A DNA stretch of 64,000 nucleotides from positions 64,001-128,000 of the IMG/VR virus record IMGVR_UViG_2901201504_000001; one strand, given 5' to 3'. The translations under genes and the position numbers were made by a program. How positions within the stretch are numbered: the stretch's first letter is position 1; every line of letters starts with the position of its first letter. The notes beneath the pieces are model-generated. The model saw only the letters and a list, made by a program, of their open reading frames with translations. It did not search any database and was not told the DNA's origin. This DNA comes from a virus. Taxonomy: Duplodnaviria > Caudoviricetes. This document shows positions 1,423 through 28,406 of the stretch, one piece after another.

Positions 1423-1494
1423 TATAACAACAAGGCTGCAGTTTTCCAAGGTTCTGCATAACAAAAACCTTTGATTATTCCAGGAGGTAATATA

Positions 1495-3105
1495 ATGTTA
1501 AATAATCCAGATTTTTATCCGACTCCAATAAACTTGATTCATAAAATGTTAGGAAAGTTAGATTTCAGATACATAAAATCAGTTTTAGAGCCAAGTGGAG
1601 GCAAAGGAGACTTATTGGAAGCTATAACAAAGCAGTTTTCATATAACAGTCGTAATAGTAAAAAACAGTCATATGATATTGATACAATCGAAATAGATGA
1701 GAATTTACAGCACATTCTGAAAGGTAAAGGTTTCAGGCTAGTACATGATGATTTTTTAACTTATCAATCTTTCAAACGTTATAGTGCTATTATTGCAAAT
1801 TTTCCTTTTTCTCAAGGCGATAAACATCTGTTAAAGGCCATAGAAATGCAGTCAAACGGTGGGGAAATAGTAGCTTTGATTAACGCTGAAACATTGATGA
1901 ATCCATACAGTAACACAAGAAAAGAACTGGTTCAGAAGCTAACAGACTTAAATGCTGAAGTAGAATATATAGAATCTGCTTTTATAAATTCTGATCGCTC
2001 TACAAATGTAACAGTTGCCTTAATTTACATATCAATATCGAAAAATGAATATAACAGCGTGATACTTAACGAACTGAAGAAAGAAGAACTACAAGAATCT
2101 AATAATCAATATAACAGTCGTGAGCTAGTTGATTCGGATTTTATAAAAGGAATTGTACAACAGTATAATTATGAAGTAAAAGCCGGTTTAAAGCTCATAG
2201 AAGAGTATAACAGCCTTACTCCGTACATGTTGCAGAGTTTTAAGGATAACAGCTCGCCTGTATTAAAATTGACACTAGATTACAATGATGAGAGTAGCAG
2301 CTTAGAAAATTCATATATAAAAAGAATCAGAGCGAAATACTGGAATGCATTATTTTCTAATGATCAATTTATGGGACTGTTTACAAGTAATTTGAAGCAG
2401 AAGTATTTAGAGCAAGTTGAGGAATTAAAGGACTATGACTTTTCTTTCTATAACATTTACACTTTAAGAATTCAAATTAGTAAAGAAATGGTACAAGGTG
2501 TAGAAGATACAATACTGAGTCTTTTTGAAGAGTTCAGCCATAAACATTATTATGATGAATCATCAAAAAACATCCATTTATATAACGGTTGGAAAACTAA
2601 CAAATCATATAAGATTAATAAAAAAGTAATTATCCCTTTAAATGGTTTTAATGGTTGGTTTGATAGAGCGTATCGCCCTACTGACTACAGGGTATCAGAC
2701 AAATTAAAGGACATAGAGAAAGTATTTAACTATTTAGATGACGGACAAACTGAAGAAATTGATATAGCAGATACTTTAAAAATGGCCGAACATTATCAGG
2801 AATCAAGAAAAATTGATCTTAAATATTTCTATATTACATTCTATAAAAAGGGAACTTGTCATATTGAATTTAAGAATATGGAACTTTTACATAAATTTAA
2901 CCTCTATGGATCGCAGCGTAAAGGATGGCTTCCTCCTTCATACGGGAATGTTAAATACAGTGATATGACAAGTGAAGAAAGAGAAGTAATTAATCAATTT
3001 GAAGGTGAGAAATCATATAGCAGAGTTGTTAGTAATAAAGCTTATTACATTGTTGAATCAGGGGATATATTAAAACTTACAGGAGGAAATCAAAAGGCTG
3101 TATAA
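1495..3105 (+). CDS. SAM-dependent (probably adenine DNA) methyltransferase with DUF4942-like C-terminus
   Basis: DFYPTP, VLEPSGGKG (motif I), NFPF at motif IV, C-terminal FYKKGTCHIEF; RBS GGAGGT before ATG 1495. Confidence 0.8.
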   Translation: MLNNPDFYPTPINLIHKMLGKLDFRYIKSVLEPSGGKGDLLEAITKQFSYNSRNSKKQSYDIDTIEIDENLQHILKGKGFRLVHDDFLTYQSFKRYSAIIANFPFSQGDKHLLKAIEMQSNGGEIVALINAETLMNPYSNTRKELVQKLTDLNAEVEYIESAFINSDRSTNVTVALIYISISKNEYNSVILNELKKEELQESNNQYNSRELVDSDFIKGIVQQYNYEVKAGLKLIEEYNSLTPYMLQSFKDNSSPVLKLTLDYNDESSSLENSYIKRIRAKYWNALFSNDQFMGLFTSNLKQKYLEQVEELKDYDFSFYNIYTLRIQISKEMVQGVEDTILSLFEEFSHKHYYDESSKNIHLYNGWKTNKSYKINKKVIIPLNGFNGWFDRAYRPTDYRVSDKLKDIEKVFNYLDDGQTEEIDIADTLKMAEHYQESRKIDLKYFYITFYKKGTCHIEFKNMELLHKFNLYGSQRKGWLPPSYGNVKYSDMTSEEREVINQFEGEKSYSRVVSNKAYYIVESGDILKLTGGNQKAV

Positions 3106-3485
3106 CAGAACTTGAAATTTATTGCTGAGTTATATGGAGTATTTAAAAATAAATTAATTCAAAAATAAATATTCCGTATAACAACAAACTTTTTTTCGAG
3201 CATGGACTTTTTAAAGAAATAAATTCATGGACTATAGAAACCTTAATTTTCTATATAACAGCTAGTCATTTTTAGAGCTGGCTCAATTTGAAGGGATGTG
3301 AAAAAGGAATGGAGAGAATAAAATGCTTATTTTATGATAACATCTACGTTATTTCATTTTTCGTTATGTTAGTCGTATTTAATATCATGATTATTTTTTC
3401 ACTAACAAAGTAATACATTTCATAAGGAAATCAACTAATAAAAATTCTCATATTTTTCTAAAATTGTGTTATGATAGTATAAGTT

Positions 3486-3785
3486 TTGAAAGAAAAGGAA
3501 TGGACTTATCTCATGCTTATAGTATTTACTATTTATTTATGTATTGGTCTGGTCATAGGTTATTACAGAATTAAAGATATTGATGATGTAATCGATGATT
3601 ATGAAAATGGCGAAGAAATGATGGATGAAGAATTACAGTTGTTAAATAGTTTATCTGAATTAAATAATACTGTGGGAGGTAAATCTTCTTTAGTTGTTTT
3701 TTACGTGGTACATGCTTTATTTTGGTTACCAATGGAATCAAGCTACTATTATAAAAAATTGATAAATTTCTTTAAGAAAGAGTAA
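3486..3785 (+). CDS. Hypothetical membrane protein
   Basis: Two hydrophobic segments; start may be the ATG at 3513. Confidence 0.65.
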   Translation: MKEKEWTYLMLIVFTIYLCIGLVIGYYRIKDIDDVIDDYENGEEMMDEELQLLNSLSELNNTVGGKSSLVVFYVVHALFWLPMESSYYYKKLINFFKKE

Positions 3786-3811
3786 TAAACAAGACAGAAG
3801 GGATTATTGTC

Positions 3812-3997
3812 ATGGCAACTATAAATTTCTACGATGACTTACTAGATCATTATGTACTATATGAAAATAATTACAATAGATGTAAAAGTATGATAACTAG
3901 TGCGTTTAAGTATAAATACATAACAGAAGAGGAGTATAAGTACTTAATAAATAAGTTGAATGTCAAACATGAGGAAATGATTGAAGCGAATAAATAA
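3812..3997 (+). CDS. Hypothetical protein
   Basis: ORF with RBS AAGGGA; no MazE-like features. Confidence 0.6.
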   Translation: MATINFYDDLLDHYVLYENNYNRCKSMITSAFKYKYITEEEYKYLINKLNVKHEEMIEANK

Positions 3998-4022
3998 AGA
4001 TTAAATAATTTAAAAAATAATC

Positions 4023-4051
4023 TTGCGCACATTTCCAACTAGTGGTAAAAT
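4023..4051 (+). promoter_or_regulatory. sigmaA-type promoter upstream of mazF
   Basis: TTGCGC-17 bp-TAAAAT with extended TG. Confidence 0.6.
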
Positions 4052-4100
4052 GTAGTTAATAAGAAAAGATAATTAAATAAACTAAATTTATAGAAAAGGT

Positions 4101-4460
4101 GTGATTGATATGATGAATGTGAAACGAGGTGATATTTACCTCGCAGACCTATCACCAGTGGTTGGATCAGAACAAGGAGGTTTGCGTCCGGTATTAATTA
4201 TTCAAAACGATATTGGCAATAGGTATAGTCCAACTGTAATTGTAGCTGCAATCACTTCTCAAATCCAAAAAGCAAAGCTTCCGACTCATGTTGAAGTAAG
4301 TAAGAGATACGGTGTAGAAAAAGATTCAGTTATTTTAGGTGAGCAGATGCGTACAATTGATAAGAAAAGATTAACAACAAATAAATTAGGCCATCTAGAC
4401 GATTACATAATGGAAAAGGTTGATATAGCAATACAAGTGAGCGTTGGGCTAGTTGGTTGA
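4101..4460 (+). CDS. mazF: MazF/PemK (NdoA/EndoA-like) endoribonuclease toxin, no adjacent antitoxin
   Basis: [58 protein letters not shown] closely resembles B. subtilis NdoA; catalytic Arg and Thr present. Confidence 0.95.
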
Positions 4461-4639
4461 TATATAGGGTAAGTTAGTAATTTACTAGACTAGATGACAA
4501 GTGAGGAAAGTGATTTTTATAAGCAACAAGGATAATGAACAAAAGGAAATGGAATACTTTGAGACGGTAGAAGATATTATTAAATTCTATCAAAAAGACA
4601 ATAAGTGTTGAAATGTAAATTTTATTAAATTTATAAGAG

Positions 4640-4840
4640 GTGAATGAAATGTTTAAACTATGTTGGATTAAGAAGAACTCTTGGGGCGAAACGGGAGGGT
4701 ATGGATGTTGTACCAAGCATGATACGATTGAAGAAATAATTAAAATTATGTCTAAATGTATCTACAATGGGGAATGGATTGAAGATAAAAATGGAAATAA
4801 ACTGGATATAGATTTAAGTAAAGTAGCAATAACAAGATAA
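4640..4840 (+). CDS. Hypothetical protein
   Basis: RBS GAGGTG; stop overlaps palindrome at 4837. Confidence 0.6.
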   Translation: MNEMFKLCWIKKNSWGETGGYGCCTKHDTIEEIIKIMSKCIYNGEWIEDKNGNKLDIDLSKVAITR

Positions 4841-4865
4841 AATATTTCTATTAAAGGAGTAGAAC

Positions 4866-5057
4866 ATGGAGAATAATATGAAATTAGTACATGCATTAAG
4901 TGATAATTTGGATAGATTAAAAGTTTTTAGCACAGGATATACTACCGGTAATAAAAGTGCCTTATTAGTTAGCTTTGAAGGTAATGTGTATAAAATAGAT
5001 ATTCAAAAAGTTCAAGAAGGTGAAGTTGATATAGATATAGTTGATACTTACCTGTAA
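4866..5057 (+). CDS. Hypothetical protein
   Basis: RBS AAGGAG; lies between palindromes 4837 and 5063. Confidence 0.7.
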   Translation: MENNMKLVHALSDNLDRLKVFSTGYTTGNKSALLVSFEGNVYKIDIQKVQEGEVDIDIVDTYL

Positions 5058-5193
5058 ATCAAATAAAAGAAGTCTTTCAATGGCTTTTAACGATGCTTAT
5101 AACTTATTAAAACTAAATTAATTAATAATATAGTTATAAGTATTATTTAACAGCTATGTGAGACAAATTTATAAATTCTTAGGAGGAGAATAA

Positions 5194-5988
5194 ATGGTTA
5201 AAAGTAAAGAAAGAAGTGAGCAGTTAAGCGCTACTACGACTGAAGAAAATTTAATGGTTTTAGTCGAAAGTCGTACTATGAGGGATCAGCATGTCTATAG
5301 GGATGAAATACTTGAGAAAGTAAAATCAGTTGCATCATTAACAGATAATTTCGAAATGACATTGCAGATGGCAGCGGATTATTATGAAGTGGGTTTTGAA
5401 GCAATAAAATCTCTTATTAAGCGAAATCGAAACGAATTTAATGAATATGCTGAATTACGAATTTTAAAAGGGAAAGTGCTTAAAGAATTTAAAGCTCAAG
5501 TTCAGCTTGAACCCGACCTTAAAACAGCACCATCGTTGACATTGATTAATCGTAGAGGTTTATTACGAATAGGAATGCTTCTTACAGAATCAGATGTTGC
5601 GAAAACAGTCAGAAATTATTTGCTTAATGTTGAGGAAGTTTCAACAGATGAACAGAAAAGATGGGCTGTAGAAAGGGAAATTAGTAAACGTGAAAGAAGA
5701 CAACTAACAGATGCAATTCAAGAGTTCTATTCTGGTACTCTAAAAGAAGGCATGGAGTATGCTACATTTACAAATTTAGTTTATAAAGTGATTTTTGATA
5801 TGAACGCTACTCAATTAAAAGCCCTCTATGAATTAGGTAAGAATGAGCCTTTACGTGATTCATTTACTACAGAAGATTTACGAAAGGTTGTAAAAGCAGA
5901 GAAAACAATTTCGGTATTGTTATTACTTGGGAAGGACTACAGTGAAATTAAATCTGAGCTTTTAGCTAACGCAGAAAAGTATCAATAA
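5194..5988 (+). CDS. Phage antirepressor-like DNA-binding protein
   Basis: AADYYEV...IKSLIKRN and LLRIGMLLTESDVAKTVR segments typical of phage regulatory proteins; strong RBS AGGAGG. Confidence 0.6.
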   Translation: MVKSKERSEQLSATTTEENLMVLVESRTMRDQHVYRDEILEKVKSVASLTDNFEMTLQMAADYYEVGFEAIKSLIKRNRNEFNEYAELRILKGKVLKEFKAQVQLEPDLKTAPSLTLINRRGLLRIGMLLTESDVAKTVRNYLLNVEEVSTDEQKRWAVEREISKRERRQLTDAIQEFYSGTLKEGMEYATFTNLVYKVIFDMNATQLKALYELGKNEPLRDSFTTEDLRKVVKAEKTISVLLLLGKDYSEIKSELLANAEKYQ

Positions 5989-6056
5989 GCATTATACGGC
6001 AAGTTGGATAATCTGCTTCTGATTTGCCGTAGACAATGATCTATAGGAGGTATTTT

Positions 6057-6302
6057 ATGAATTATAAAGATATCTTAGATGATGAAGGAGAAATCTTTGT
6101 TGCTGGCCAGTGGTTTAAAGCTGAAGATTTTCAAGAAGTACAAAGTGCTCAGAATGAAGAAGTTGAAACAAATACATATAGCACTGACGAGCTACTAGAT
6201 CAATATAGGGATTACATGACATTACATAAGATGTTTGATGATATAGAGTATAAGGAAGCTGCTGAGAGCGTTATAAGACAGTTAAGAAGTAAATTAGTAT
6301 AA
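6057..6302 (+). CDS. Hypothetical phage protein
   Basis: RBS AGGAGG before ATG 6057. Confidence 0.7.
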   Translation: MNYKDILDDEGEIFVAGQWFKAEDFQEVQSAQNEEVETNTYSTDELLDQYRDYMTLHKMFDDIEYKEAAESVIRQLRSKLV

Positions 6303-6532
6303 AATTAAGGATTTTAAGAAACATGTACTTAGATATTACGGAAATTGGATAACGGATGAAGAAATACAAATATCTCTAGAGATTGCAATATGCATTTTTG
6401 AAGGTGAACAAATTTTTGTAGTGGATGCTCCATTATGTATACATGCAACTGCTTATTTAGATGAACATCTGATACAATATTATTAGTTGGAAATAAACGA
6501 ATAAAACAAGTCTTTTATTTGGAGGTAATAAA

Positions 6533-6844
6533 ATGAGCCTAAGAGTTGAATTAGAGAAGTACATATATCAAAGCAATGAATCGTTATTAAATATATTTAA
6601 GAATGACCTTAAAGGAGAAGAGTATTTTAACGATTTTATCAAATTGCTAAAGGAAGAGTTAAAATCTCATGAATTATTTAACGATGTTTCTTTATCTAAA
6701 TTCAAAAATGGTATAGAAGGTGAAAATAGTTTCATTAGGTTTATGTCATTGATTAGATCAGTATTTGTCCCAGAAGAAGTGACTGCAATGTCAAAAGAAC
6801 ATTTTAATAGAATACAAGAAGAAATCAAAGGCATTTTAGAATAA
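6533..6844 (+). CDS. Hypothetical protein
   Basis: RBS GGAGG; bounded by palindromes 6501 and 6841. Confidence 0.7.
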   Translation: MSLRVELEKYIYQSNESLLNIFKNDLKGEEYFNDFIKLLKEELKSHELFNDVSLSKFKNGIEGENSFIRFMSLIRSVFVPEEVTAMSKEHFNRIQEEIKGILE

Positions 6845-6874
6845 ATCGAATATTTTAATTGGAGGAAGATTATT

Positions 6875-7426
6875 TTGACTGATAGAGAAAATGCTATTGA
6901 GAACATAATGAATTTTTTAGAAGATAAAGAGAAAAGAATATTATTAATTAGAGGTTATGATAACAAGGCTAAGATTAGAGCTTCTCTTTCTTGTTTGAAT
7001 AGGGTGTTTAGCAAGGGAATCATAAGAACAGGTTTAATGTCTGATATTTCAGATCATATTAATTGTGCTTTTAATAGAGATATTTTACCTCATCAAGTCA
7101 AATCGACAACAAGTTATAAAATAGGGAAGATGAATGTTAGGATCAATAGTTATGTAAATCATACACAATCTAATCCAAAAGGAAATGAAAATACGTTTAC
7201 TTTATTTTTGCCTGTAGAAAACGTATTGAAAAAGGATAGTAGGTATAATGATTTTATAGATGATTTAAATAATTCTGGTTCAGCTAAAGTTATTCTTATT
7301 ACCACTAATGAATGGGGAATAAATAATTGGGATATTGAAGCTCATGTTGATGAAGTTTTCTTTTATAAAGTAGAAAACGATAATCCGCAACTAATGAGTA
7401 ATCTAAGAAATAACGGTGCATTATAG
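6875..7426 (+). CDS. Hypothetical protein, possibly degenerate P-loop/Abi-like
   Basis: ILLIRGYDNKAK resembles a degenerate Walker A; RBS GGAGG. Confidence 0.55.
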   Translation: MTDRENAIENIMNFLEDKEKRILLIRGYDNKAKIRASLSCLNRVFSKGIIRTGLMSDISDHINCAFNRDILPHQVKSTTSYKIGKMNVRINSYVNHTQSNPKGNENTFTLFLPVENVLKKDSRYNDFIDDLNNSGSAKVILITTNEWGINNWDIEAHVDEVFFYKVENDNPQLMSNLRNNGAL

Positions 7427-7473
7427 GGAGTTTAAAGTAGTACAAGTAAATAAAATGACAAAATTAAAATGAA

Positions 7474-7656
7474 ATGGTGGGAGTTTCTATGTTAACTAAA
7501 GTTATGACTGAAGAAGAAATGCAACAATATGCCAATGAAAAAGAGGGTTATGAGGTTGAGTTTTTACCAGAGTATGCATTGAAATTAGGATATGAAGCAA
7601 CATTAGAAGAAGATTCAATTGGTGAAGAATACTATATTTTTAACAAGATAAAATAA
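7474..7656 (+). CDS. Hypothetical acidic protein
   Basis: Likely start ATG 7489 after GGGAG; ends in palindrome 7648. Confidence 0.55.
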   Translation: MVGVSMLTKVMTEEEMQQYANEKEGYEVEFLPEYALKLGYEATLEEDSIGEEYYIFNKIK

Positions 7657-7780
7657 CTATTTCATAAGTAGTTCATAAATAAAATCACCTTAAATATTTT
7701 CTTAAAATTATCACTTGAAATTTTATATCAAATAGTTTGAAATATATGTAGAATGTTTGTTTGTATAATTATGAAAAGAG

Positions 7781-8623
7781 GTGATGTCTTTGTGGAATGC
7801 CAAAATATTTATGGAGAAGTTTAAAAGTTGTTTGGCTTTTTCAGCAACTTTAGGTGGTTTTCTTTTAATATTTTATCCTCCTGGTGATCTTGATACTAAA
7901 CGAGGAATAGCTGCAGTAGTTGCGTTTATTATTGCGAATGTCTTAGCCGCAATAATTTTAGCAAAGCCAAAGAAAAAAATAAGTTTGGATATTTCGAAAA
8001 AGGTCAAGTTAAATATATTTTACGGTGACATATTTGATTCATCGTCAAATATTGTAATTCCCGTAAATGAATACTTTGATACGCTCGTAGACAATGTTCC
8101 TGATACTGTTATTTCAAGCAGAACACTACATGGTAAATTTGTTAAGCTGATTTATGGTGGTAACGTTGCTGAATTAGATGTTGCGATTGAAAATGCATTA
8201 AGCAGTGTTGATTGTAACATTAACCCCACTAGGAAGAAAGGTAAAACTAAAAAGTACAACATCGGTCAAACTATATGCATTAGTAAGGACGGTAAGAAAT
8301 ACAGTCTATTAGCATTTAGTAAGTTCGATGAATACAATAAAGCCTATCTGTCCAAAAAGAACTATCAGTTGGTAATACAAGATTTATTTGACCATCTCCA
8401 TGTTATTTCGCAAGGTGAAGAAGTAAACATGCCATTAATCGGAGCTGGTCAATCTGGAATCAACTTAACCAAGCAAGAACTTTTAGAGTACTTAATCTTC
8501 TCACTAAAAATGTGCGATGATCTTACATTAAGTGGAGGAATTAATATCGTATTGCATGAAAGCTTAAGAAAAGAACTTGATTTAAACAAAATTGAGTTTA
8601 TTTCAAAAAGAGGAGGATTTTAA
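7781..8623 (+). CDS. thsA: Thoeris type II effector ThsA (two TM helices plus macro domain)
   Basis: N-terminal TMs, then FYGDIF...VIPVNEYFDT...HG...MPLIGAG macro motifs; adjacent TIR gene. Confidence 0.85.
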   Translation: MMSLWNAKIFMEKFKSCLAFSATLGGFLLIFYPPGDLDTKRGIAAVVAFIIANVLAAIILAKPKKKISLDISKKVKLNIFYGDIFDSSSNIVIPVNEYFDTLVDNVPDTVISSRTLHGKFVKLIYGGNVAELDVAIENALSSVDCNINPTRKKGKTKKYNIGQTICISKDGKKYSLLAFSKFDEYNKAYLSKKNYQLVIQDLFDHLHVISQGEEVNMPLIGAGQSGINLTKQELLEYLIFSLKMCDDLTLSGGINIVLHESLRKELDLNKIEFISKRGGF

Positions 8624-8624
8624 A

Positions 8625-9179
8625 ATGGCATACAGAAATGGAACATACGTGGCGTTCAATGGGTGTGGTACAACGAATCCAACAGAAAGTGATATGAAAT
8701 ATTATGGATTATTGCAAAAATGGAATAAAGAATACGGGGCAGATTTAAATTTCAGCGATAGTCACGATAAAACATACAGTGTACGAGATTCTAGTAAAAC
8801 AGAAACATTGAAACGAAGATTGCTTGAAAGGTTGAAGAATTCAAAACATATAGTACTTATCGTTACTGAAAATTCAAGTTGGAATCGAGGTCTTCTTAAT
8901 TGGGAAATTGAAAAAGCGGTTGAGCAATATAAAATCCCATTGATTGTTGCACATACTACTTGTTCTGGATTTATATCGAGCCCTAAGCAATTAGCCCATT
9001 TGTTACCAGAGGAATTTAAGAACCAAGTGGCTAAAGGAAATATTAAAGCTATCCACGTTCCGTTTAGGAAAAGAGCAATTGGCGCAGCAATTCGTCAATT
9101 TGGTATCAATAATCAAATTCCAGATACAGCTTTTGACTATTATATTCAAAAAGCATATATTGATTGGGATTACAGATAA
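8625..9179 (+). CDS. thsB: Thoeris ThsB TIR-domain protein (DUF1863-like)
   Basis: MAYRNGTYVAF...FSDSHD...RDSS...ERLKNSK...LNWEIEKA (catalytic Glu); RBS AGGAGG before ATG 8625. Confidence 0.88.
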   Translation: MAYRNGTYVAFNGCGTTNPTESDMKYYGLLQKWNKEYGADLNFSDSHDKTYSVRDSSKTETLKRRLLERLKNSKHIVLIVTENSSWNRGLLNWEIEKAVEQYKIPLIVAHTTCSGFISSPKQLAHLLPEEFKNQVAKGNIKAIHVPFRKRAIGAAIRQFGINNQIPDTAFDYYIQKAYIDWDYR

Positions 9180-9286
9180 AAGATTGCTTTTATAATAGAG
9201 ATTACATTAAATATAGAGCGAGTTATTACAACAAGACATGCTTCATCGCTCTTAGTTATTACATTACGAAACTAGGAGGGATTTTC

Positions 9287-9466
9287 ATGAGAGCAAGTGG
9301 GGTTAGATTAAGAACAATAGGTGCTATACCTTGTTCTGGCATTAAACATAGAAGTACAATTATTAATGATTTAAAGAGACAGTTTGGGAAGGTAAGGATA
9401 AATATTTGTGATGATCTAGTAATGTATGAAGTAAGTGAAGAAAAAGAAAGTAATTTTTTAAATTAA
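9287..9466 (+). CDS. Hypothetical protein
   Basis: RBS AGGAGG before ATG 9287 (track start 9164 is too long). Confidence 0.6.
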   Translation: MRASGVRLRTIGAIPCSGIKHRSTIINDLKRQFGKVRINICDDLVMYEVSEEKESNFLN

Positions 9467-9491
9467 AAAGTAAATTAATATAAAAAACCTA

Positions 9492-9520
9492 TTGACTACA
9501 GATAATATTTTCTATATAAT
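9492..9520 (+). promoter_or_regulatory. sigmaA promoter for the aimR operon
   Basis: TTGACT-17 bp-TATAAT. Confidence 0.75.
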
Positions 9521-9572
9521 TCTAAATATAGGAAATAAATAGAAAATAGTTGATGTGGTGAGGTGCTGAGTA

Positions 9573-9812
9573 TTGGAGAGTTGTAAACAGCTATATCAGA
9601 TAGATGGTAGTATTGCTGCTATCATATCATTCCCAATTAATGAATCAAATGTGGATCTTGCATTAAAAACTTTGAATTTAACAGAAGAAGAATTAACAGA
9701 AGATTTTTACGATTTATGCACTAAAAACAAATTAATAATTAAAGATGTAAAGAAATTCAATTGTTCTTACAGAAAATCCTATATGAAAATATTAACTGAT
9801 TCGATTTCATAA
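9573..9812 (+). CDS. Hypothetical protein upstream of aimR
   Basis: RBS GAGGTG. Confidence 0.6.
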   Translation: MESCKQLYQIDGSIAAIISFPINESNVDLALKTLNLTEEELTEDFYDLCTKNKLIIKDVKKFNCSYRKSYMKILTDSIS

Positions 9813-9836
9813 GGCAAAAAAGAGAGGGGTTATCTT

Positions 9837-11000
9837 ATGTGCTTATTGAAAAAAATACTAAACAAAAGAGCATCTGATGACGATACTCTCATTAAAAATT
9901 TAGCCAAGGAAATAGGGTATTCAGATACTCCAATAAGAAATTTTAAAAACAAACCAGAAAAAGAGCTTGATAGTTTTGAATCGTTAGTAAAAATGGTTAG
10001 ATATTTAGAACCTGATAGAGAAATTGAAATTATGATTGATTACTCAAACCATTTAAGATTAAATTTCAATACTGCTCGATATATGCTAGATTATCTATCT
10101 GTAAATAGACAACTAGATGAGATGAATAGCTTAATTGAAAAGATGAAAGAATCATCAAATAAAGAAAGTGCGCTTTGGGCTAAAGCATATTCATTGTTAT
10201 ATTTATGGCAAACACAATCTTTCAAGTTAGATTTAGACAAGTTTTTGAATGAAGTAAATTATTTAGTTACAAAAAACATACCTTCATTAGAAATTTTACA
10301 AAGATTGTTGAAATGTTATATATATGATCAAAAGCAATATCATAAACAAGTACTAGAGATATCTGAAGAAGTTAAATTCCTTATTGAGAAAGTAGAAGAT
10401 AATTATTTAAAAAGGGTTTATTCAGTTAAAATCAATGAAATTACATCTAATCTTAAATTATGGGTTTACAATGATTTTGATGGAGCACGAGAAGATGCAA
10501 ATAAAGTTATAGAAGCTGATTTAGGAATTGGATTTACAGCTTATGCAAAATATACAATTGCTCAATCATATTTTTATACTTCATATGATAAATCTAGAGA
10601 GTATTTCATTGATTGTATTAGACTGTATGAAACTATGAATAGGAAAGAAGTTGCAGAAGATGTTGTCGGTTCTCTTGAGTTTTTAGAAATATTTTGGGAT
10701 CAGAAAAAGCAAGATAGTAGTTTTATATTAAAAGAGAATGAGCTATATATAAAAGCTAAATTAAACATAGATATTACGGAAGACTTACATAATTTTAATG
10801 ACGAAAATAAACAAGGATTTATATTATTTCTTAAAGGTATAAATGAAAATAATACTGATTTTTTATTTAAGTCTATGATTCAAAATCTTAAAGGGGGTGA
10901 TGCCTTTAGTGCCAACGCAGCTAGACTGGAACTTCAGAATAGAGGTTTCAGTGAAGTAGTATTAAATGAACTAATAAAGATTCACGACAATCAAAAGTAA
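9837..11000 (+). CDS. aimR: Arbitrium receptor AimR (HTH plus TPR, RRNPP family)
   Basis: 387 aa; N-terminal HTH (LAKEIGYS...NFKN...ELDSFESLVK), ARYMLDY, WAKAY, helical repeats; followed by a secreted-peptide gene. Confidence 0.9.
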   Translation: MCLLKKILNKRASDDDTLIKNLAKEIGYSDTPIRNFKNKPEKELDSFESLVKMVRYLEPDREIEIMIDYSNHLRLNFNTARYMLDYLSVNRQLDEMNSLIEKMKESSNKESALWAKAYSLLYLWQTQSFKLDLDKFLNEVNYLVTKNIPSLEILQRLLKCYIYDQKQYHKQVLEISEEVKFLIEKVEDNYLKRVYSVKINEITSNLKLWVYNDFDGAREDANKVIEADLGIGFTAYAKYTIAQSYFYTSYDKSREYFIDCIRLYETMNRKEVAEDVVGSLEFLEIFWDQKKQDSSFILKENELYIKAKLNIDITEDLHNFNDENKQGFILFLKGINENNTDFLFKSMIQNLKGGDAFSANAARLELQNRGFSEVVLNELIKIHDNQK

Positions 11001-11029
11001 GGATAGGTGCTTTAAAGGAGGTGATGAAA

Positions 11030-11137
11030 ATGAAGAAATTAGCACTTATCGCATTAGCAGTTGTAGTAATTTTAGCAGTAGGTACATTATTTGGCGGAGA
11101 TTTTTCTGTCGCAGCTCGTCCACCGATGGGCGGGTGA
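11030..11137 (+). CDS. aimP: Arbitrium pre-pro-peptide AimP, MKKLALIALAVVVILAVGTLFGGDFSVAARPPMGG
   Basis: Translated by hand; RBS AAAGGAGGTG; signal peptide plus short C-terminal peptide directly after aimR. Confidence 0.9.
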   Translation: MKKLALIALAVVVILAVGTLFGGDFSVAARPPMGG

Positions 11138-11164
11138 TTCAAAATTTAATACTTAATTAAATTA

Positions 11165-11197
11165 AAAGACGTTATTCCATTCAGGAGTAACGTCTTT
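11165..11197 (+). terminator. Stem-loop between aimP and aimX
   Basis: AAAGACGTTATTCC-ATTCA-GGAGTAACGTCTTT. Confidence 0.8.
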
Positions 11198-11264
11198 CAT
11201 AATTTTACGAAGAAATACCGATTTTTTAAAAATGAAAAATTGGAACTTTAAAGGAGAAATGATC

Positions 11265-11426
11265 ATGTTAACTAATCTAAATCAAATCACACAAACAAAT
11301 AGTAACTTTTATGAAGCGATGAAGAATGGATATCTTAGTACTGGGGAACTTAATCTTGAGCTTGCAAATGAATTATTGACTCCGGAGAATGAAGCCTTTG
11401 AAACTACTGAAATATTTCTAAAATAA
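11265..11426 (+). CDS. aimX: AimX, MazE C-terminal mimic
   Basis: Lies after the aimP terminator; AMKNGYLSTGELNLELANE...ENEA aligns by eye to MazE MRRGYMEMAKINLNISSE...ECEA; RBS AAAGGAG. Confidence 0.75.
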   Translation: MLTNLNQITQTNSNFYEAMKNGYLSTGELNLELANELLTPENEAFETTEIFLK

Positions 11427-11440
11427 GTATACTCTTAAAA

Positions 11441-11469
11441 AGCAATTCATTATCTGAGTTGCTTTTTTT
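11441..11469 (+). terminator. Intrinsic terminator after aimX
   Basis: AGCAATTCA-TTATC-TGAGTTGCT followed by a T run. Confidence 0.8.
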
Positions 11470-11491
11470 GGTAATTTTTTGTTATTAAGTA

Positions 11492-11520
11492 TTGATTTTA
11501 TTAATACGCCATATTATAAT
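11492..11520 (+). promoter_or_regulatory. sigmaA promoter
   Basis: TTGATT-17 bp-TATAAT. Confidence 0.7.
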
Positions 11521-11583
11521 GAAATTAATAAAAATTAATTAATGTAAAATATTAAAATTAAACAAAAAGAGGTTGGTGGTGAT

Positions 11584-11796
11584 ATGTCTTTTGAAAAAGA
11601 TTTTATAAGTGGTTATAAAGAATTAATGATTGAACGTGATCGAGTAATTGAAGAGGTTGAATTTATGGTCTTAGATTACATAAGGAATGTAGTAGCAGAG
11701 TATAGTCGAGAGTATTGTTATTGTATGGATGAGGAATTACTAATGAATGCTGCATCAAATGTCATTATGTCAGAGATTGAAAGAATAAGAGGATAA
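11584..11796 (+). CDS. Hypothetical protein
   Basis: ORF directly after the promoter, with RBS. Confidence 0.65.
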   Translation: MSFEKDFISGYKELMIERDRVIEEVEFMVLDYIRNVVAEYSREYCYCMDEELLMNAASNVIMSEIERIRG

Positions 11797-11822
11797 TTAT
11801 AAGGGAGTGATTAAGATGTGTA

Positions 11823-12212
11823 TTGCATCAAAAAGTGGGAGAGTTAGAAAGTGTGATAACAAATATTGATAATGAACGGAAAAGGCTGAATTTACTTCTG
11901 TCACAACTAGATAAAGAGTTGAATAAGCAATATCACAAAATTGAACAGGCGAATTTTAATGCAGCGGAAGGCTACTTTTTATCTAGAGAATTACAAATTA
12001 TTTTACGTAAAAGAAGGGTTGTGAAAGAAGAACTGTATACTTTAGTAAGATTAAATCAACACTTAGATGTTACCAGCGTTGTGAAGACACTTCCCAAGGT
12101 AAAAAATTGTTTGAAACAAATACATAGCGTAAAAAACACAAAAAAGAAGGATGAATGGAAAAAAGGTTGGAAAGATCACTTTAGAGCTGAAGAAATGCAG
12201 CTTCAACATTAA
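11823..12212 (+). CDS. Hypothetical coiled-coil phage protein
   Basis: YHKIE...FNAAEGY...RKRRVVKEE pattern. Confidence 0.7.
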   Translation: MHQKVGELESVITNIDNERKRLNLLLSQLDKELNKQYHKIEQANFNAAEGYFLSRELQIILRKRRVVKEELYTLVRLNQHLDVTSVVKTLPKVKNCLKQIHSVKNTKKKDEWKKGWKDHFRAEEMQLQH

Positions 12213-12308
12213 TGTCAAAGTTTTATTGGAAGTTAAAAATCTGAATTTTATATGTAATATAATAATATTAAAAACTAATACACTAATATAAAACGATGGA
12301 GGGATGAA

Positions 12309-13379
12309 ATGTTTACTAAAGATGCTTACATGATTGAAGTAAATAATAAATATATTTCCAGGAGAAGACATTCAGAGTATGATAACTTAGTTATTCTGAA
12401 TTATACCGAAAATGCCACTTATGAATGAAGGTGGAATGATATTACTCTATCAGCTAGAGGATTGATTATTGATGAAAAGACTGGAGAAGTAGTTGCAAGG
12501 CCGTTTCCTAAATTTTTTAATTACGGTGAGTTGCCGGAATACGAATCAGACATTCCATTCCATGAAACACCTGAATTCACAGTAAAGCAAGATGGTTCTT
12601 TAGGAATTAGTTATAAAGTAAATGGATATACATATTGGTCTACGAGAGGCTCATTTGAGTCAGAACAAGCTAAAGCAGCTCAAGTTATATGGGATAGAAA
12701 ATATGCAAATGTGGATATTCCAGATGAATTAACACTTTTAGTAGAGATAATTGATCCTGCAACAAGGGTGGTAGTTGATTATAAAGGTTTATCAGATTTA
12801 ATTATCATAGGTGCAGTAAATAGGTTTAATGGTTATGACTATAGCTATAAAGAATTGAAGGAATTAGGAAATAAATTAGGTATGATTGTTACGGAACAAA
12901 TCCCTCTTACTATACAAGAAGCTGTTCGATTGAAGGAAACAATAGATTATAACAGTGAAGGTTGGGTGCTACGCTGGTCTAATGGGAAACGTTTAAAAAT
13001 TAAGGGCAATAACTATCTAGATATACATAAGTTAGCATATGGATTATCTCAGAAGATGAAGACTGAATTTTGGAAAGATGAAAATATTGAAGAGTTAATA
13101 CTCAAAATGCCAGAAGAATTCAGAGAGGAAATTGAAAAATTCAATGATAGTTTAAATATCCATCTAAGCATTTTAATAAATACAGTTACTTCTTACGTAA
13201 ACACTTGTAAAGAGATGAGTAAAGATCGCAAAGAATTTGCTATGAATGTTAATATACACACTCCCAAAGAAATTAGGTATCTGATATTTAAAGAATATGA
13301 TAAAAAGCTAGATTCAAAAGTATATAGAGAGCATATCTACAAGAACTATCTAAATTACATTAATGGAGGAATAGGATGA
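12309..13379 (+). pseudogene. T4 Rnl1-like RNA ligase interrupted by an in-frame TGA at 12426-12428
   Basis: RBS GGAGGG, ATG 12309, MFTK...LNYTENATYE*RWNDITLSARGLIID continues in frame; PFPKFFN, KQDGS (motif I), EGWV, LKIK. Confidence 0.85.
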
Positions 13380-14356
13380 ATAAATTAATAATGTTAGTTG
13401 GTTTACCAGCAAGTGGTAAAAGCACATTAGCGGAAAAATTATCGAAAGAATATGATGCAGAAATCGTCTCTTCAGATGAAATTAGAAAAGAGTTATTTAA
13501 TGATATTAATGATCAAACTAATAATGATACAGTTTTCAATGTAATGCATGAAAGAGTTATTAAACTCCTCAATGCCGACAGAAGTGCTATTTATGATGCA
13601 ACAAACTTAAATAGAAAGCGGAGAAAACACTTAATCAATCATGTATTTAAAGCGGATCAAAAGATTGTTTACTACATTAATGAAAGTATTGGAACTGTGT
13701 TATGTAGAGACAGTGAACGTGAAAGAAATGTAGGAGAGAAAATAATAAGTAAAATGTATAAAAATCTTCATATTCCAGTTGAAGGAGAAGGATGGGATAA
13801 GGTAATTTACGTTAATTACTACAATGATGGGTTGTTGAGATTAAAAAAGCACTATGAAGAAGTTATCACTACTGTACATTCTCATGATGAACTGTTTGGA
13901 TATCTAACTGCATATATTAGTGAGTTCAGTGAAATTCTAAATTTACCACAGGATTCTAGCTATCATTCCTTTTCAGTAAGTAGGCATACATATTATGTAC
14001 ATAACTATATTCTAGAGAACTATCATAATGAAGATAGATTAATTTTATTATGGGCAAGTTTATTTCATGATATTGGAAAATCATATTGTAAATCATTTAC
14101 TAACTTTAAGGGAGAAGAAACAAAATATGCGAATTTCATAGGACATGAATATGTTTCTTCTCAGATAGCAGCAAAACGATTAGGGATGTTAGGATACGAT
14201 GAAAACTTTATTAAAAAAATTGTAACCTTAGTACAATTCCACATGATGCCGATGAGAGCTAGTGAAAAGAAAATGAATGAAATCAATAGGCTAATTGGAG
14301 ATGATTTATATGCTAAGTTAATGATACTTAGTGAAGCAGATACGCAGGCTAAATAA
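13376..14356 (+). CDS. Polynucleotide kinase (AAA_33-type P-loop) fused to an HD phosphohydrolase
   Basis: GLPASGKST, SSDEIR, YDATN; H...FHDIGK...GHE...HM...D. Confidence 0.85.
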   Translation: MNKLIMLVGLPASGKSTLAEKLSKEYDAEIVSSDEIRKELFNDINDQTNNDTVFNVMHERVIKLLNADRSAIYDATNLNRKRRKHLINHVFKADQKIVYYINESIGTVLCRDSERERNVGEKIISKMYKNLHIPVEGEGWDKVIYVNYYNDGLLRLKKHYEEVITTVHSHDELFGYLTAYISEFSEILNLPQDSSYHSFSVSRHTYYVHNYILENYHNEDRLILLWASLFHDIGKSYCKSFTNFKGEETKYANFIGHEYVSSQIAAKRLGMLGYDENFIKKIVTLVQFHMMPMRASEKKMNEINRLIGDDLYAKLMILSEADTQAK

Positions 14357-14385
14357 AAAGTCGATGTTATTAGGAGGTAGGGAAT

Positions 14386-14520
14386 ATGTTTTTATGTGAG
14401 AAATGTTTGGATGATAATTTTAAGAATTTCGCAATACCTTTTAGTCGTGGAAAATGTGAATTCTGTGAAAAAGTTAAAGTATGTGTAGATATTCCAAGTA
14501 AGTTTCTAGTGAAGAGATAG
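14386..14520 (+). CDS. Small zinc-finger protein (not in the ORF track)
   Basis: MFLCEKC...CEFC; RBS GGAGG. Confidence 0.6.
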   Translation: MFLCEKCLDDNFKNFAIPFSRGKCEFCEKVKVCVDIPSKFLVKR

Positions 14521-14549
14521 ACACGATTTTATTCTAATTAAGAACGATT

Positions 14550-14759
14550 ATGCGAAGGAATGGTGTGACTATGAGTAGTGAAAGAACGGTGAAAGAATTA
14601 AAAGAGGACATCAAACGAGAAATAGAAGCAACTCGGACTTTAAGAGAAACTGGAAGCGGATTTTACTATGAATATAAAGATTGGCAGTCAAAAAAGGATT
14701 GTGAGAGATTAGAGAAATTATTAAATGAAATTATCTATTTCGAATGGGAGTATTGTTGA
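14550..14759 (+). CDS. Hypothetical protein
   Basis: ORF; probable start at 14571. Confidence 0.55.
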   Translation: MRRNGVTMSSERTVKELKEDIKREIEATRTLRETGSGFYYEYKDWQSKKDCERLEKLLNEIIYFEWEYC

Positions 14760-14825
14760 GTGATTCTGTCATATAGCGTAGAAACTAAATAAAAGAACAA
14801 TTTCATTTTAAGGGTGGGGTGAAAA

Positions 14826-15206
14826 ATGTCAGTTAACGTATTTTGTGATGCATCTGTTAATAATAAAAAGCAAATGGCCGTATTGGGAGCAATAATAAGA
14901 CATAAAAATGAAATAATACATAAAAACCAATGCGTTGTAGAGAATGTTTCTGGTGGATCGTATCATGGGGAATTATTAGCTATAGAAATGACTGTGAATC
15001 TTTTGAAAGAATTGAATATGAGCCAAGTTAAAGTATTTACAGATTGTCAAAGTGCAGTTTATAGATTGCGAAACCAGCTAAAGAAAGGTGCAAAACACAG
15101 AAAACGCATTGAAAAGATAAAAGAAAAAGCTAAAGAATTAGAACTTGAATTCCATTGGATTCCAAGAGAGAGAAATAAAACTGTTGATAAATTAACAAGA
15201 ATATAA
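14826..15206 (+). CDS. Ribonuclease HI-like protein
   Basis: FCDAS, GELLAI, FTDCQ, HWIPRERN..VD; DEDD catalytic set intact. Confidence 0.88.
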   Translation: MSVNVFCDASVNNKKQMAVLGAIIRHKNEIIHKNQCVVENVSGGSYHGELLAIEMTVNLLKELNMSQVKVFTDCQSAVYRLRNQLKKGAKHRKRIEKIKEKAKELELEFHWIPRERNKTVDKLTRI

Positions 15207-15237
15207 ATTAATAAATTTTATAAAGGGAGATAATTGA

Positions 15238-15942
15238 ATGAGAAAAGAAGCGTTTAAAGCACTTGTAGGATCACATAATTATAATCTTAACGATGCCGAC
15301 TCTGACAAAGATTATAAGCTGTTTTATTATCCAACATTTGACGATTTGTATTTCGGTGATAAAGTTTCAAAATCCAAAGTTAGCAAGACAGAAGACATTG
15401 AGTTCCATGATATTAGGAAATTACCTGATATGCTATGGAAAAGTAATGTAAATTTCATGGAAGTATTGTTTTCTACAGAAGTAGTAGCTAATGATAATTT
15501 GTATAAAGAACTTCATCAAAAGAGAGAATCTATTGCTCGAATGAACCTTCCATATTTGTATGATGCTTGTATGGGGATGTATTTTAATAAACGTAAATCA
15601 TATGATAAACAAAATGAAAAAGGTGACGAAAAAGCAGCAAATAAACACATCATGGGAGCTTTTAGGATTCTGGATTTCCTTTTCAGATATCAGCAAGGAG
15701 ATTTTTTGAACTTTGAAGAGTCAATAAATTATCATAATGAAGATCCTTATAGAGACTTCCTGTTTACGGCTAAAGAAGGTAAAGTTTTTAATGTGATTGA
15801 TAGATTAAACAATAAGCTAAGGATTATAGAAGAAATTAAACATAGATATAAAGATCAAGAACTTGATCACGGTGTAAATAAGTTTGTAATTGATACAGTT
15901 AAACATTATGTAAAAGAAAATATATATGAAGAATTAAATTAA
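15238..15942 (+). CDS. Pol-beta superfamily nucleotidyltransferase
   Basis: VGSHNYNLNDADSDKDYK (GS...DxD), HDIRK, NFMEVLF. Confidence 0.8.
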   Translation: MRKEAFKALVGSHNYNLNDADSDKDYKLFYYPTFDDLYFGDKVSKSKVSKTEDIEFHDIRKLPDMLWKSNVNFMEVLFSTEVVANDNLYKELHQKRESIARMNLPYLYDACMGMYFNKRKSYDKQNEKGDEKAANKHIMGAFRILDFLFRYQQGDFLNFEESINYHNEDPYRDFLFTAKEGKVFNVIDRLNNKLRIIEEIKHRYKDQELDHGVNKFVIDTVKHYVKENIYEELN

Positions 15943-20437: not shown

Positions 20438-21388
20438 ATGCAAAAAAAATTACAGGTATTTATATCGTCTACATTTACAGACTTAATTGAGGAAAGGCAG
20501 ACTGCTGTAGAAGCGGTACTAAACGCAGGACATATACCAGCTGGAATGGAATTATTTAAATCAGGTGATAAAAGCCAAAAAGAAGTTATTAAAAAATGGA
20601 TTGATGAATCTGATGTATATATGTTGATTTTAGGTGGCAGATATGGGTCGATTGATGAAGAGACAGGTAAGAGTTATACTCACTGGGAGTATGATTATGC
20701 AGGAGAAATAGGTAAACCAAGATTCGCAATCGTAATAACTGATGAAGCTATGGAAGAAAAGGTTAGAGAACATGGTCAAGACGTTTTGGAGAGAATTAAT
20801 TATCAAAAGTACATAGAATTTAAAGAGCAGGTACTTGGAAAGATTTCGAAATTTTATAGTGATCTTAAAGATATTAAAATTGTCGTTTTAGAGTCATTAA
20901 AAGAATTTGAAAAAGATGAAAACTTAAATGGGTGGGTATCTGGAGCGAATATTAATAATCAACAAGAGTTGTTAACATCAAATTTAAGATTATTAGAAGA
21001 GAATGCCTCTCTAAAAAATAAATTAGAAGAAGCTTTGAACAAAATTCAAAAATCAAATGAGATTAATGGTTACTCATATGATGAGATATATAAATATTTG
21101 TCATTCGAAAAGTTGGAATTACCAGAAAAATTATTCCCAGAGTTAGTTGGGAAAAAAGTATCGCTTTTGAAATTATTTCTTGCATTTAAAGATCGATTAG
21201 CAATTGGAATAACTAATGATGTACACATGACTGATGAAAATAATTTTTACTTTTTTAGTGTAGCCCCAACGCTTATTGCTCTGGGATTATACGAAAAGGT
21301 TAAAGTTGCGGGGGTAACCTATCAAAGAATTCAAACTTCAAAAGATGGTAATAAATTTTTATCTTTATACGAATTGTCAAAAAAATAA
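20438..21388 (+). CDS. DUF4062-domain protein (TIR-like fold plus coiled coil), candidate defence gene
   Basis: VFISSTFTDLIEER...AGMELF...LGGRYGS...SYTHWEY. Confidence 0.85.
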   Translation: MQKKLQVFISSTFTDLIEERQTAVEAVLNAGHIPAGMELFKSGDKSQKEVIKKWIDESDVYMLILGGRYGSIDEETGKSYTHWEYDYAGEIGKPRFAIVITDEAMEEKVREHGQDVLERINYQKYIEFKEQVLGKISKFYSDLKDIKIVVLESLKEFEKDENLNGWVSGANINNQQELLTSNLRLLEENASLKNKLEEALNKIQKSNEINGYSYDEIYKYLSFEKLELPEKLFPELVGKKVSLLKLFLAFKDRLAIGITNDVHMTDENNFYFFSVAPTLIALGLYEKVKVAGVTYQRIQTSKDGNKFLSLYELSKK

Positions 21389-26953: not shown

Positions 26954-27048
26954 TTTTATTAACATTTTACTAAGTGATACATATAAAGTACAATTAGTAA
27001 TGTGTTGTATATATGATAAATATAATAAGAAGTGAATGAGGTGTTTTT

Positions 27049-28389: not shown

Positions 28390-28406
28390 AATAATGAGGG
28401 ATATAT

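Follow-up and report, generated by a model that had tools for sequence, protein, structure and literature searches.

The window analysed here, a stretch of 64,000 nucleotides (nt) that spans bases 64001-128000 of the IMG/VR record IMGVR_UViG_2901201504_000001, belongs to a 137,119-bp provirus with a completeness estimate of 100%, and its G+C content is ~30% throughout. It carries an intact gene for a MazF-type toxin with no adjoining mazE antitoxin gene and, further downstream, an arbitrium locus whose AimX protein resembles the MazF-binding end of MazE; a second MazE-like open reading frame (ORF), related to YosL of phage phi3T, lies just beyond the window end. We consider the chances about even that mazF, aimX, and the YosL-like ORF constitute a dispersed three-gene module, that is, a phage-borne version of the MazF node known from phi3T.

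In phi3T, lysogeny requires MazF, which both AimX and YosL bind and neutralise (PMC10769878; Guler preprint). The phi3T decision runs via the host's toxin, which raises the question of whether MazF is an essential part of the switch, under selection, or a defence of the host with which the phage merely copes. A related phage with its own mazE-less MazF, a MazE-like AimX, and a YosL-like protein represents a natural experiment on the role of MazF. What is new here is that the toxin of the known phi3T MazF/AimX/YosL network is carried by the phage itself, where its function is predicted. We found no published arbitrium or SPbeta-like phage described as having a MazF gene, in a search that left subscription journals and supplementary survey tables (which possibly list such phages) outside its range.

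The phage mazF gene and its immediate surroundings

The mazF gene (4110-4460 on the + strand; ORF 4101/4110-4460) encodes a 116-amino-acid (aa) protein of the MazF/EndoA endoribonuclease type. Its product matched the family PF02452 (PemK_toxin) with an E value of 1.9e-35 and 121.8 bits against a cut-off of 23.1, over positions 1-108 of the 109-position profile; it also matched the B. subtilis EndoA structures 4MDX and 4ME7 in the PDB (E ~2e-51) and phrog_1936, annotated as 'MazF-like growth inhibitor' (E 9e-34). Chromosomal MazF proteins of Bacillales were 71-78% identical to it (best 80 loci, drawn from one genome per prokaryote species). According to PMC8634880 (citing Simanshu 2013), RNA binding and toxicity of B. 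subtilis MazF require G18, E20, R25, P26, and T48. The phage protein has the equivalents of all five (numbering is offset by +1 in its 116-aa form), and these columns were invariant or nearly so in a 28-sequence alignment. An earlier first-pass annotation, made from the sequence letters alone, had described an intact NdoA-like mazF, and the family, structure, and residue evidence bears this out: the phage MazF is an intact, predicted endoribonuclease toxin close to B. subtilis EndoA.

A search of 5.8 billion proteins gave, apart from the phage MazF itself, a protein that we refer to as P0004 as its closest relative, followed by chromosomal NdoA proteins at 80% identity or less. P0004 is intact, 115 aa long, and 87% identical to the phage MazF (110/116 positives), and both proteins have an unusual Gly in the motif ILGEQ and a one-residue deletion. 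In a quick, largely unresolved tree of 92 rows, made from 136 loci plus the window after high-scoring segment pairs shorter than 95 residues and exact duplicates had been dropped, the phage MazF had a branch length of 0.41 against a median of 0.031 and did not fall within the tight clade that holds 46 of the 49 chromosomal rows; a tree of this kind yields neither a donor nor an order of events. The same annotation had given mazF a promoter of its own, for which we found no support, as the region 3300-12300 contained 49 promoter-like sites compared to 55.4 +/- 8.5 in shuffled sequences. A TTGCGC-17-TAAAAT site, picked by eye, was absent from the promoter scan listing.

A MazE ORF ended just upstream of mazF in 79 of the 80 chromosomal relatives, the exception (L085) being a contig that ends at this point, and this canonical type II operon arrangement, with mazE immediately upstream of mazF, was not found in the window. 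Here the sole upstream ORF encodes 61 aa (3812-3997, + strand) and is unrelated to MazE, so the annotation was right that no mazE adjoins the toxin gene. It had also named this ORF as a possible cognate antitoxin, and we found no sign of such a role in family, profile, or homologue searches. Against a MazE profile, the 61-aa product scored at noise level (E 2.3 with the hidden Markov model [HMM] described below; hhalign probability 1.9%). It had no matches in Pfam, PADLOC, or PHROG and no homologue except itself among the 5.8 billion proteins, and in a protein atlas it retrieved generic helical look-alikes only, with scores <0.8. Neither this ORF nor any of the other small ORFs flanking mazF had a tblastn match in 57 loci, 55 of which are viral loci bearing MazF, and a relative's contig from sequencing run X2 keeps mazF but does not align across 3812-3997.

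Candidate antitoxins encoded elsewhere in the phage

The candidate antitoxins were sought with an HMM of 61 non-redundant chromosomal MazE proteins, run with filters off on all 2361 six-frame stop-to-stop ORFs (25 aa or longer) of the entire provirus. Only two ORFs scored below an E value of 0.01, namely the YosL-like ORF (2.9e-14) and AimX (1.1e-6), and the third-ranking ORF had an E value of 2.3.

The aimX gene (11265-11426, + strand) lies ~6.8 kb downstream of mazF and encodes 53 aa when read from the Met preceded by the Shine-Dalgarno sequence AAAGGAG (64 aa when read from 11232). The start is likely 11265 rather than 11232; AAAGGAG precedes the ATG at 11265, and the resulting 53 aa equal the length of P0002, a 94% identical protein that was the sole homologue of AimX among the 5.8 billion proteins. 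Searched against phage records, the AimX protein gave chance-level matches only (E 4). Its alignment to the MazE profile with hhalign reached a probability of 84% (E 7e-6, 37 columns), and phi3T AimX aligned to it without gaps at 12/29 identities (E 0.001). The YosL family, phrog_21769, also matched AimX (E 6.6e-5, profile positions 68-108). Across AimX, the YosL-like ORFs, and MazE, the columns M, G-Y, N, E, E, and A were invariant, and the invariant Tyr of AimX aligns with Y18 of phi3T AimX, a residue whose change to alanine (Y18A) abolishes antitoxin activity (Guler 2023 preprint, 10.1101/2023.04.27.537455). Taken together with the HMM score, these matches uphold the resemblance to the MazF-binding C-terminus of MazE that the first-pass annotation had proposed, and they argue, well beyond chance, that AimX is a MazE C-terminal mimic of the phi3T kind.

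The second mimic, a YosL-like ORF of 58 aa, occupies record positions 128081-128257 on the + strand (L139:4081-4257), 81-257 nt beyond the window end and directly upstream of nrdI-nrdE-nrdF. It is the best MazE HMM match in the provirus and has a good ribosome-binding site. phi3T YosL aligned to it at 17/33 identities (E 2e-9), and phrog_21769 matched it with an E value of 2.6e-9 over positions 63-109 of 115; this family is that of YosL, since phi3T YosL (E 6e-62), phi3T AimX (E 1.3e-10), and a chromosomal MazE (E 1.8e-10) all matched it. The YosL-like ORF and AimX are paralogues, with 19/37 identities (E 6e-11) and a common ending ...ETTE(I/S)FLK. In phi3T, yosL (phi3T_165) holds the equivalent place upstream of bnrdI/bnrdE. 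The YosL-specific N-terminal domain (~60-70 aa) is absent here, as the 58-aa ORF matches the C-terminal part only. [quoted passage not shown] The annotation's suggestion that AimX might serve as a remote antitoxin therefore stands as far as MazE mimicry is concerned, but AimX is not the sole candidate for that role because the provirus holds a second, stronger mimic. The phage MazF likely has two antitoxins encoded elsewhere in the phage, probably under two different regulatory regimes, and because of these two candidates it would be an orphan by position only.

The gene order around aimX corresponds to an arbitrium locus. The receptor gene aimR (9837-11000, + strand), which begins 5.4 kb downstream of mazF, matched the AimR family PF22871 with 143 bits (cut-off 26.7; E 1.1e-41), and its product was ~25% identical to the AimR proteins of phi3T and SPbeta over 96-98% of its length; pattern scans of viral and genome contigs retrieved no close relatives. 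Only 21 nt after aimR begins an ORF for a 38-aa putative pre-pro-peptide with a hydrophobic N-terminus and the ending ...ARPPMGG (11021-11137, + strand), which we assign as aimP from its position and sequence, as no family model exists for this peptide. Between aimP and aimX, a terminator scan predicted a hairpin with a 14-bp stem (11165-11197, + strand), and the RNA of 11138-11235 was predicted to fold at -22.7 kcal/mol (z -5.0), with none of 200 shuffled sequences folding as well. AimR of phi3T overrides a terminator between aimP and aimX (PMC10769878, Zamora-Caballero 2024), and the order aimR-aimP-hairpin-aimX in the provirus matches this antitermination design.

Genomic context and conservation

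The provirus is, judging from its gene homologies, a distant SPbeta-like phage because it holds homologues of sroD, sroE, and sroF, MrpR/YopR domains, an AimR, and the nrdI-nrdE-nrdF operon. The sro homologues (25937-29399, + strand) were identified with tblastn and Pfam, and they represent an SPbeta-like signature of an integrase-like, a DndB-like, and a MrpR/YopR-type master repressor gene. Searches with phi3T_95, phi3T_96, and phi3T_97 found the sroD, sroE, and sroF homologues at E values of 1e-33, 3e-57, and 3e-43, respectively; the sroF homologue carries both MrpR/YopR domains (PF22823, E 3.9e-22; PF22822, E 2.5e-18), and PF14072 and PF00589 also match within this stretch. The sro genes do not directly follow aimX but stand ~14.5 kb downstream of it, with RNA-repair and other genes in between. 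Homologues of SroA and SroB were not found in the provirus, where the best tblastn match had an E value of 0.059 over 13 aa. Two small ORFs after aimX (11584-11796 and 11823-12212) hold the sroA/sroB position and are without similarity to either. At the DNA level, a near-identity search of window positions 3400-11600 against GenBank phages returned zero matches.

The association of mazF with this arbitrium locus recurs in a relative. A 13,844-nt contig of run X2, which has the same organism label but comes from another study, aligned to mazF at 4078-4249 and 4399-4857 and to 9176-12214, a region that comprises the 3' end of thsB, aimR, aimP, aimX, and the next two genes, with order and orientation kept. 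The longest contig listed for P0004, and likewise for P0002, also measures 13,844 nt. Because both parts aligned in like order, the mazF-AimX linkage is present in a second, diverged prophage.

Beyond this lineage, phage MazF genes are mostly found in other company. We searched 15 other large viral records bearing MazF for MazE mimics and obtained one clear match, one weak match, and 13 blanks, the latter being soft negatives given the loose first filter of this search. The clear match is a 112-aa YosL-like ORF in the provirus G003 that likewise lies upstream of nrdI, and the weak one is a 58-aa ORF with the motif QGY...ELNL in G010 (E 0.0035). AimR was detected in none of the five other MazF-bearing viral records examined for it. 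Psychrobacillus phage Perkons also encodes a MazF-family gene (ORF37) without an adjoining mazE, and Staphylococcus cluster B phages carry MazF without mazE (PMC6507118). In 97 phage records that matched MazF, the ten most frequent first words in the names of the organisms did not include Bacillus. A mazE-less phage MazF is in itself not rare, and what is unusual here is the coupling of such a gene to a MazE-like AimX. As an observation on other viruses, two large MazF-bearing viral contigs have a conserved 56-57-aa ORF (MSYKIWG.../MAYKIWG...) directly 3' of mazF (L004, 10408-10581, with a 4-nt overlap; L008, 10442-10612, ~40 nt past mazF), which does not occur in the window and is a candidate downstream antitoxin for those phages.

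Between mazF and aimR, PADLOC and Pfam identified a type II Thoeris pair (7781-9179, + strand) that consists of thsA (7781-8623; two transmembrane helices and a Macro domain) and thsB (8592-9179; TIR domain). PADLOC matched ThsA at E 2.4e-57 and ThsB at E 1.3e-58, and the Pfam matches were PF20016 (E 2e-46) and PF08937 (E 5.9e-17). By these predictions, the type II Thoeris system is complete, prophage-carried, and placed directly upstream of the arbitrium locus. Upstream of mazF lies the gene for a 544-aa Dam-like and DUF4942 protein (1471-3105, + strand), whose counterparts in the MazF-bearing proviruses G003 and G004 (L006, 2216-3814; L007, 14267-15865) are 68% and 54% identical; this suggests that the methyltransferase and MazF travel in one genome region in this phage group. 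Together with the Thoeris pair, this methyltransferase gene puts mazF in a stretch that is rich in defence-type accessory genes.

Further downstream, a gene at 20438-21388 (+ strand) encodes a 316-aa protein with a DUF4062 domain at its N-terminus (E 1.3e-31); this domain is frequent in proteins associated with defence, and the gene may likewise belong to the prophage's accessory set. A group of RNA-repair-type genes (12462-15942, + strand), ~1 kb past aimX, includes a T4-type RNA ligase 1 (PF09511), an AAA_33 kinase plus HD-domain protein, an RNase H-like protein, and an RlaP nucleotidyltransferase (PF10127). MazF cleavage leaves 5'-OH and 2',3'-cyclic phosphate ends, on which healing-and-sealing enzymes of this type act, and a link between this set and MazF is conceivable; the RNA ligase family of the PF09511 gene is common in phages (904 records).

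A possible MazF circuit, its rivals, and known systems

How might these genes work together? We infer binding, toxicity, expression timing, and an effect on lysogeny from gene content, homology, gene positions, and the hairpin, and from these the following scheme can be proposed. The two candidate antitoxins would be little beyond the MazF-binding C-terminal segment of MazE, without its DNA-binding domain. By analogy with phi3T, AimX, encoded behind the terminator hairpin, would be produced only as long as no AimP peptide is bound to AimR, and the YosL-like ORF, at the head of the nrdIEF replication operon, would be expressed in the course of lytic growth. At low AimP, first AimX and then the YosL-like protein would block MazF (the phage copy and probably the host's too), and lytic growth would go ahead; as AimP accumulates, AimX production would stop, and free MazF might cut UACAUA-bearing transcripts and tip the decision to lysogeny. 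An antitoxin-less phage MazF would secure the supply of free toxin, for which phi3T instead prises the host MazF from MazE via SroA and SroB, proteins that bind MazE and thereby activate, or free, MazF (10.64898/2026.08.06.743204).

The distribution of cleavage sites bears on the last step. B. subtilis MazF has UACAUA as its site, which is also conserved for the MazF of Listeria and S. aureus (10.64898/2026.08.06.743204), and in phi3T MazF is reported to spare the sro operon and to favour lysogeny (10.1101/2025.11.27.690993). On the + strand, UACAUA was somewhat over-represented (149 sites against 111 expected), and the three sro genes contained one site in 3351 nt compared to a gene average of 1.14/kb, a difference that is not significant (hand-calculated P ~0.1). 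Both observations point weakly in the direction of the proposed scheme, and the scarcity in sro is what would be expected if MazF spared the repressor operon. The lengths of UACAUA-free intervals on the + strand gave no signal, as the longest in the window (6560-10786, 4226 nt) was shorter than the random median of 4880 nt. One UACAUA lies inside the mazF coding sequence itself, at window position 4404 (codons ...D-Y-I-M...), and aimX has none; self-cleavage of the mazF mRNA at 4404 would give a simple negative feedback.

A bolder version of the scheme, which we regard as unlikely, sees in these genes a self-supplied circuit from signalling to RNase, with a split toxin-antitoxin system in which the phage MazF would be the pro-lysogeny effector, AimX its quorum-gated antitoxin, and the YosL-like protein the antitoxin of the replication phase. 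The diverged MazF lineage would prefer antitoxins ending in ...ETTE(I/S)FLK over host MazE and the YosL of other phages, and this would create a private decision channel that at the same time excludes competing SPbeta-like phages. The divergence that we cite for this idea consists of the Gly in ILGEQ, the one-residue deletion, and the long branch.

Several observations weigh against the proposal that the arbitrium system acts through the phage MazF. A distance of 5.4 kb and unrelated genes, including the Thoeris pair, separate mazF from aimR, and nothing in the gene arrangement ties mazF transcription to arbitrium. From the presence of AimX and YosL it does not follow that they chiefly target the phage MazF, since both would be expected anyway, acting on host MazF as they do in phi3T and SPbeta. 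Phage MazF usually occurs without an arbitrium or MazE-mimic circuit, as judged from the scarcity of mimics and the absence of AimR in the MazF-bearing viral records above. AimX is also less MazE-like than the YosL-like ORF, with ST-GE at the EM-AK positions and a Pro in the helix region.

The main competitor of the proposed three-gene module is a reading in which the phage MazF is a defence gene of lysogenic conversion, that is, a superinfection-exclusion factor directed at incoming phages including SPbeta-like ones; arbitrium would then not act through the phage MazF, and AimX and the YosL-like protein would act mainly on host MazF, besides giving the resident phage self-immunity at induction. 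We rate this as possible, if on the doubtful side, and the location of mazF in an accessory stretch by a type II Thoeris system makes it a real rival, with the complete pair beginning 3.3 kb downstream of mazF and the Dam-like/DUF4942 methyltransferase upstream. PHROGs places phage MazF in the category 'moron, auxiliary metabolic gene and host takeover', and MazF occurs without recognisable MazE mimics in 13 of the 15 large viral records as well as in Perkons and in Staphylococcus cluster B phages (PMC6507118). Host MazEF can in fact block phages, as lytic phi3T and SPbeta are blocked once yosL and aimX are deleted (Guler preprint, 10.1101/2023.04.27.537455); an additional MazF from the prophage could raise MazF activity in the lysogen and so reinforce this block against competitors. 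The long MazF branch in the quick and largely unresolved tree would fit divergence from the antitoxins of other phages. A lysogen, however, would tolerate an antitoxin-less MazF only with host MazE or if the toxin were non-lethal, and no PADLOC model matches the phage MazF. MazF and a MazE-like AimX occur together in both of the only two known members of this MazF lineage, a pattern that fits a functional tie at least equally well.

Two further explanations concern the partner of the toxin. MazF might belong to a novel two-gene toxin-antitoxin pair with an unrecognised adjoining antitoxin (3812-3997, 4501-4611, or 4640-4840), which would make the MazE likeness of AimX irrelevant; small same-strand ORFs do flank mazF, the downstream stretch 4399-4857 is kept with mazF in the X2 relative, and a 66-aa flanking ORF matches phrog_18229 (function unassigned) at E 5.6e-12. 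We hold this to be improbable, considering that the 61-aa ORF lacks any family match, MazE similarity, homologue, or counterpart in the X2 alignment, that no flanking ORF recurs beside MazF in the loci searched, and that the provirus G003 carries a different ORF upstream of its MazF. About as improbable in our view is that the phage MazF works as a sponge for host MazE, freeing host MazF, or is held inert by an excess of host MazE. Binding of host MazE is plausible since the protein is 71-78% identical to chromosomal MazF and a 14-residue aligned stretch differs only at the residue before Arg, and phi3T offers a precedent in that it activates MazF through sequestration of MazE by SroA/SroB (10.64898/2026.08.06.743204). 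Both lineage members, though, keep all residues for RNA binding and toxicity, and their substitutions are conservative (110/116 positives), which argues for selection on an active enzyme.

The proposed three-gene module and the defence reading have different consequences. If the phage copy is the effector, MazF would be a bona fide regulatory part of the phage, and the circuit could pass from one host to another; should it be a defence gene instead, the prophage would arm its host with a toxin whose antidotes only the prophage holds. Either way, the antitoxin function of a type II system would have been split off, cut down to a binding peptide, duplicated, and placed under two regulatory regimes.

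Among known systems, AimX acts by three known mechanisms, and that of phi3T uses a MazF described as bacterial (Kabel 2025 preprint, 10.1101/2025.11.23.689978). In extended arbitrium systems, where AimX is an antirepressor of AimC (10.1101/2025.11.23.689978), a small AimR-controlled AimX ORF is likewise found downstream of aimP. Unlike those systems, the provirus has no divergent aimC/aimL pair of helix-turn-helix (HTH) proteins after aimX, and its AimX is homologous to MazE and YosL; the next genes on the + strand had no HTH match, and on the - strand the kilobase after aimX has a single ORF of 50 aa or more (12063-12371), which matched no family.

The phi3T network is closer. Shared with it are the aimR-aimP-terminator-aimX layout, an AimX of ~50 aa that is homologous to the MazE C-terminus and keeps the critical Tyr, a second MazE-like protein at the yosL position upstream of nrdI/E/F, and the sroDEF/MrpR set. 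The differences are that MazF is phage-encoded without mazE here and the host's own in phi3T and SPbeta, that AimR is only ~25% identical to theirs, that phi3T YosL has 117 aa with an N-terminal domain whereas the YosL-like protein has 58 aa without it, and that the sro genes adjoin aimX there but stand apart from it here, with no SroA/SroB found. Compared to the chromosomal mazEF (ndoAI-ndoA) of Bacillales, the phage toxin has the same fold family and key residues at the identity given above, and the MazE C-terminal motif M..GY.EM..INL.IA.E....E.EA is recognisable in AimX and the YosL-like ORF. In contrast to the chromosomal arrangement, there is no operon, as distances of 6.8 kb and 59.6 kb separate the toxin gene from the two antitoxin-like genes, and chromosomal MazE ends in ...VERLVSGG where the two phage proteins have their ...ETTE(I/S)FLK. 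The phage proteins also lack the N-terminal DNA-binding/dimerisation domain of MazE, and classical autoregulation would therefore not be expected. Finally, the provirus resembles other phages with an orphan MazF/PemK (phrog_1936; Perkons ORF37; Staphylococcus cluster B) in carrying MazF without an adjoining mazE. For those phages, no connection with arbitrium or MazE mimics has been reported or detected, whereas the MazF of the provirus and that of one relative are accompanied by a MazE-like AimX, and that of G003 by a YosL-like ORF.

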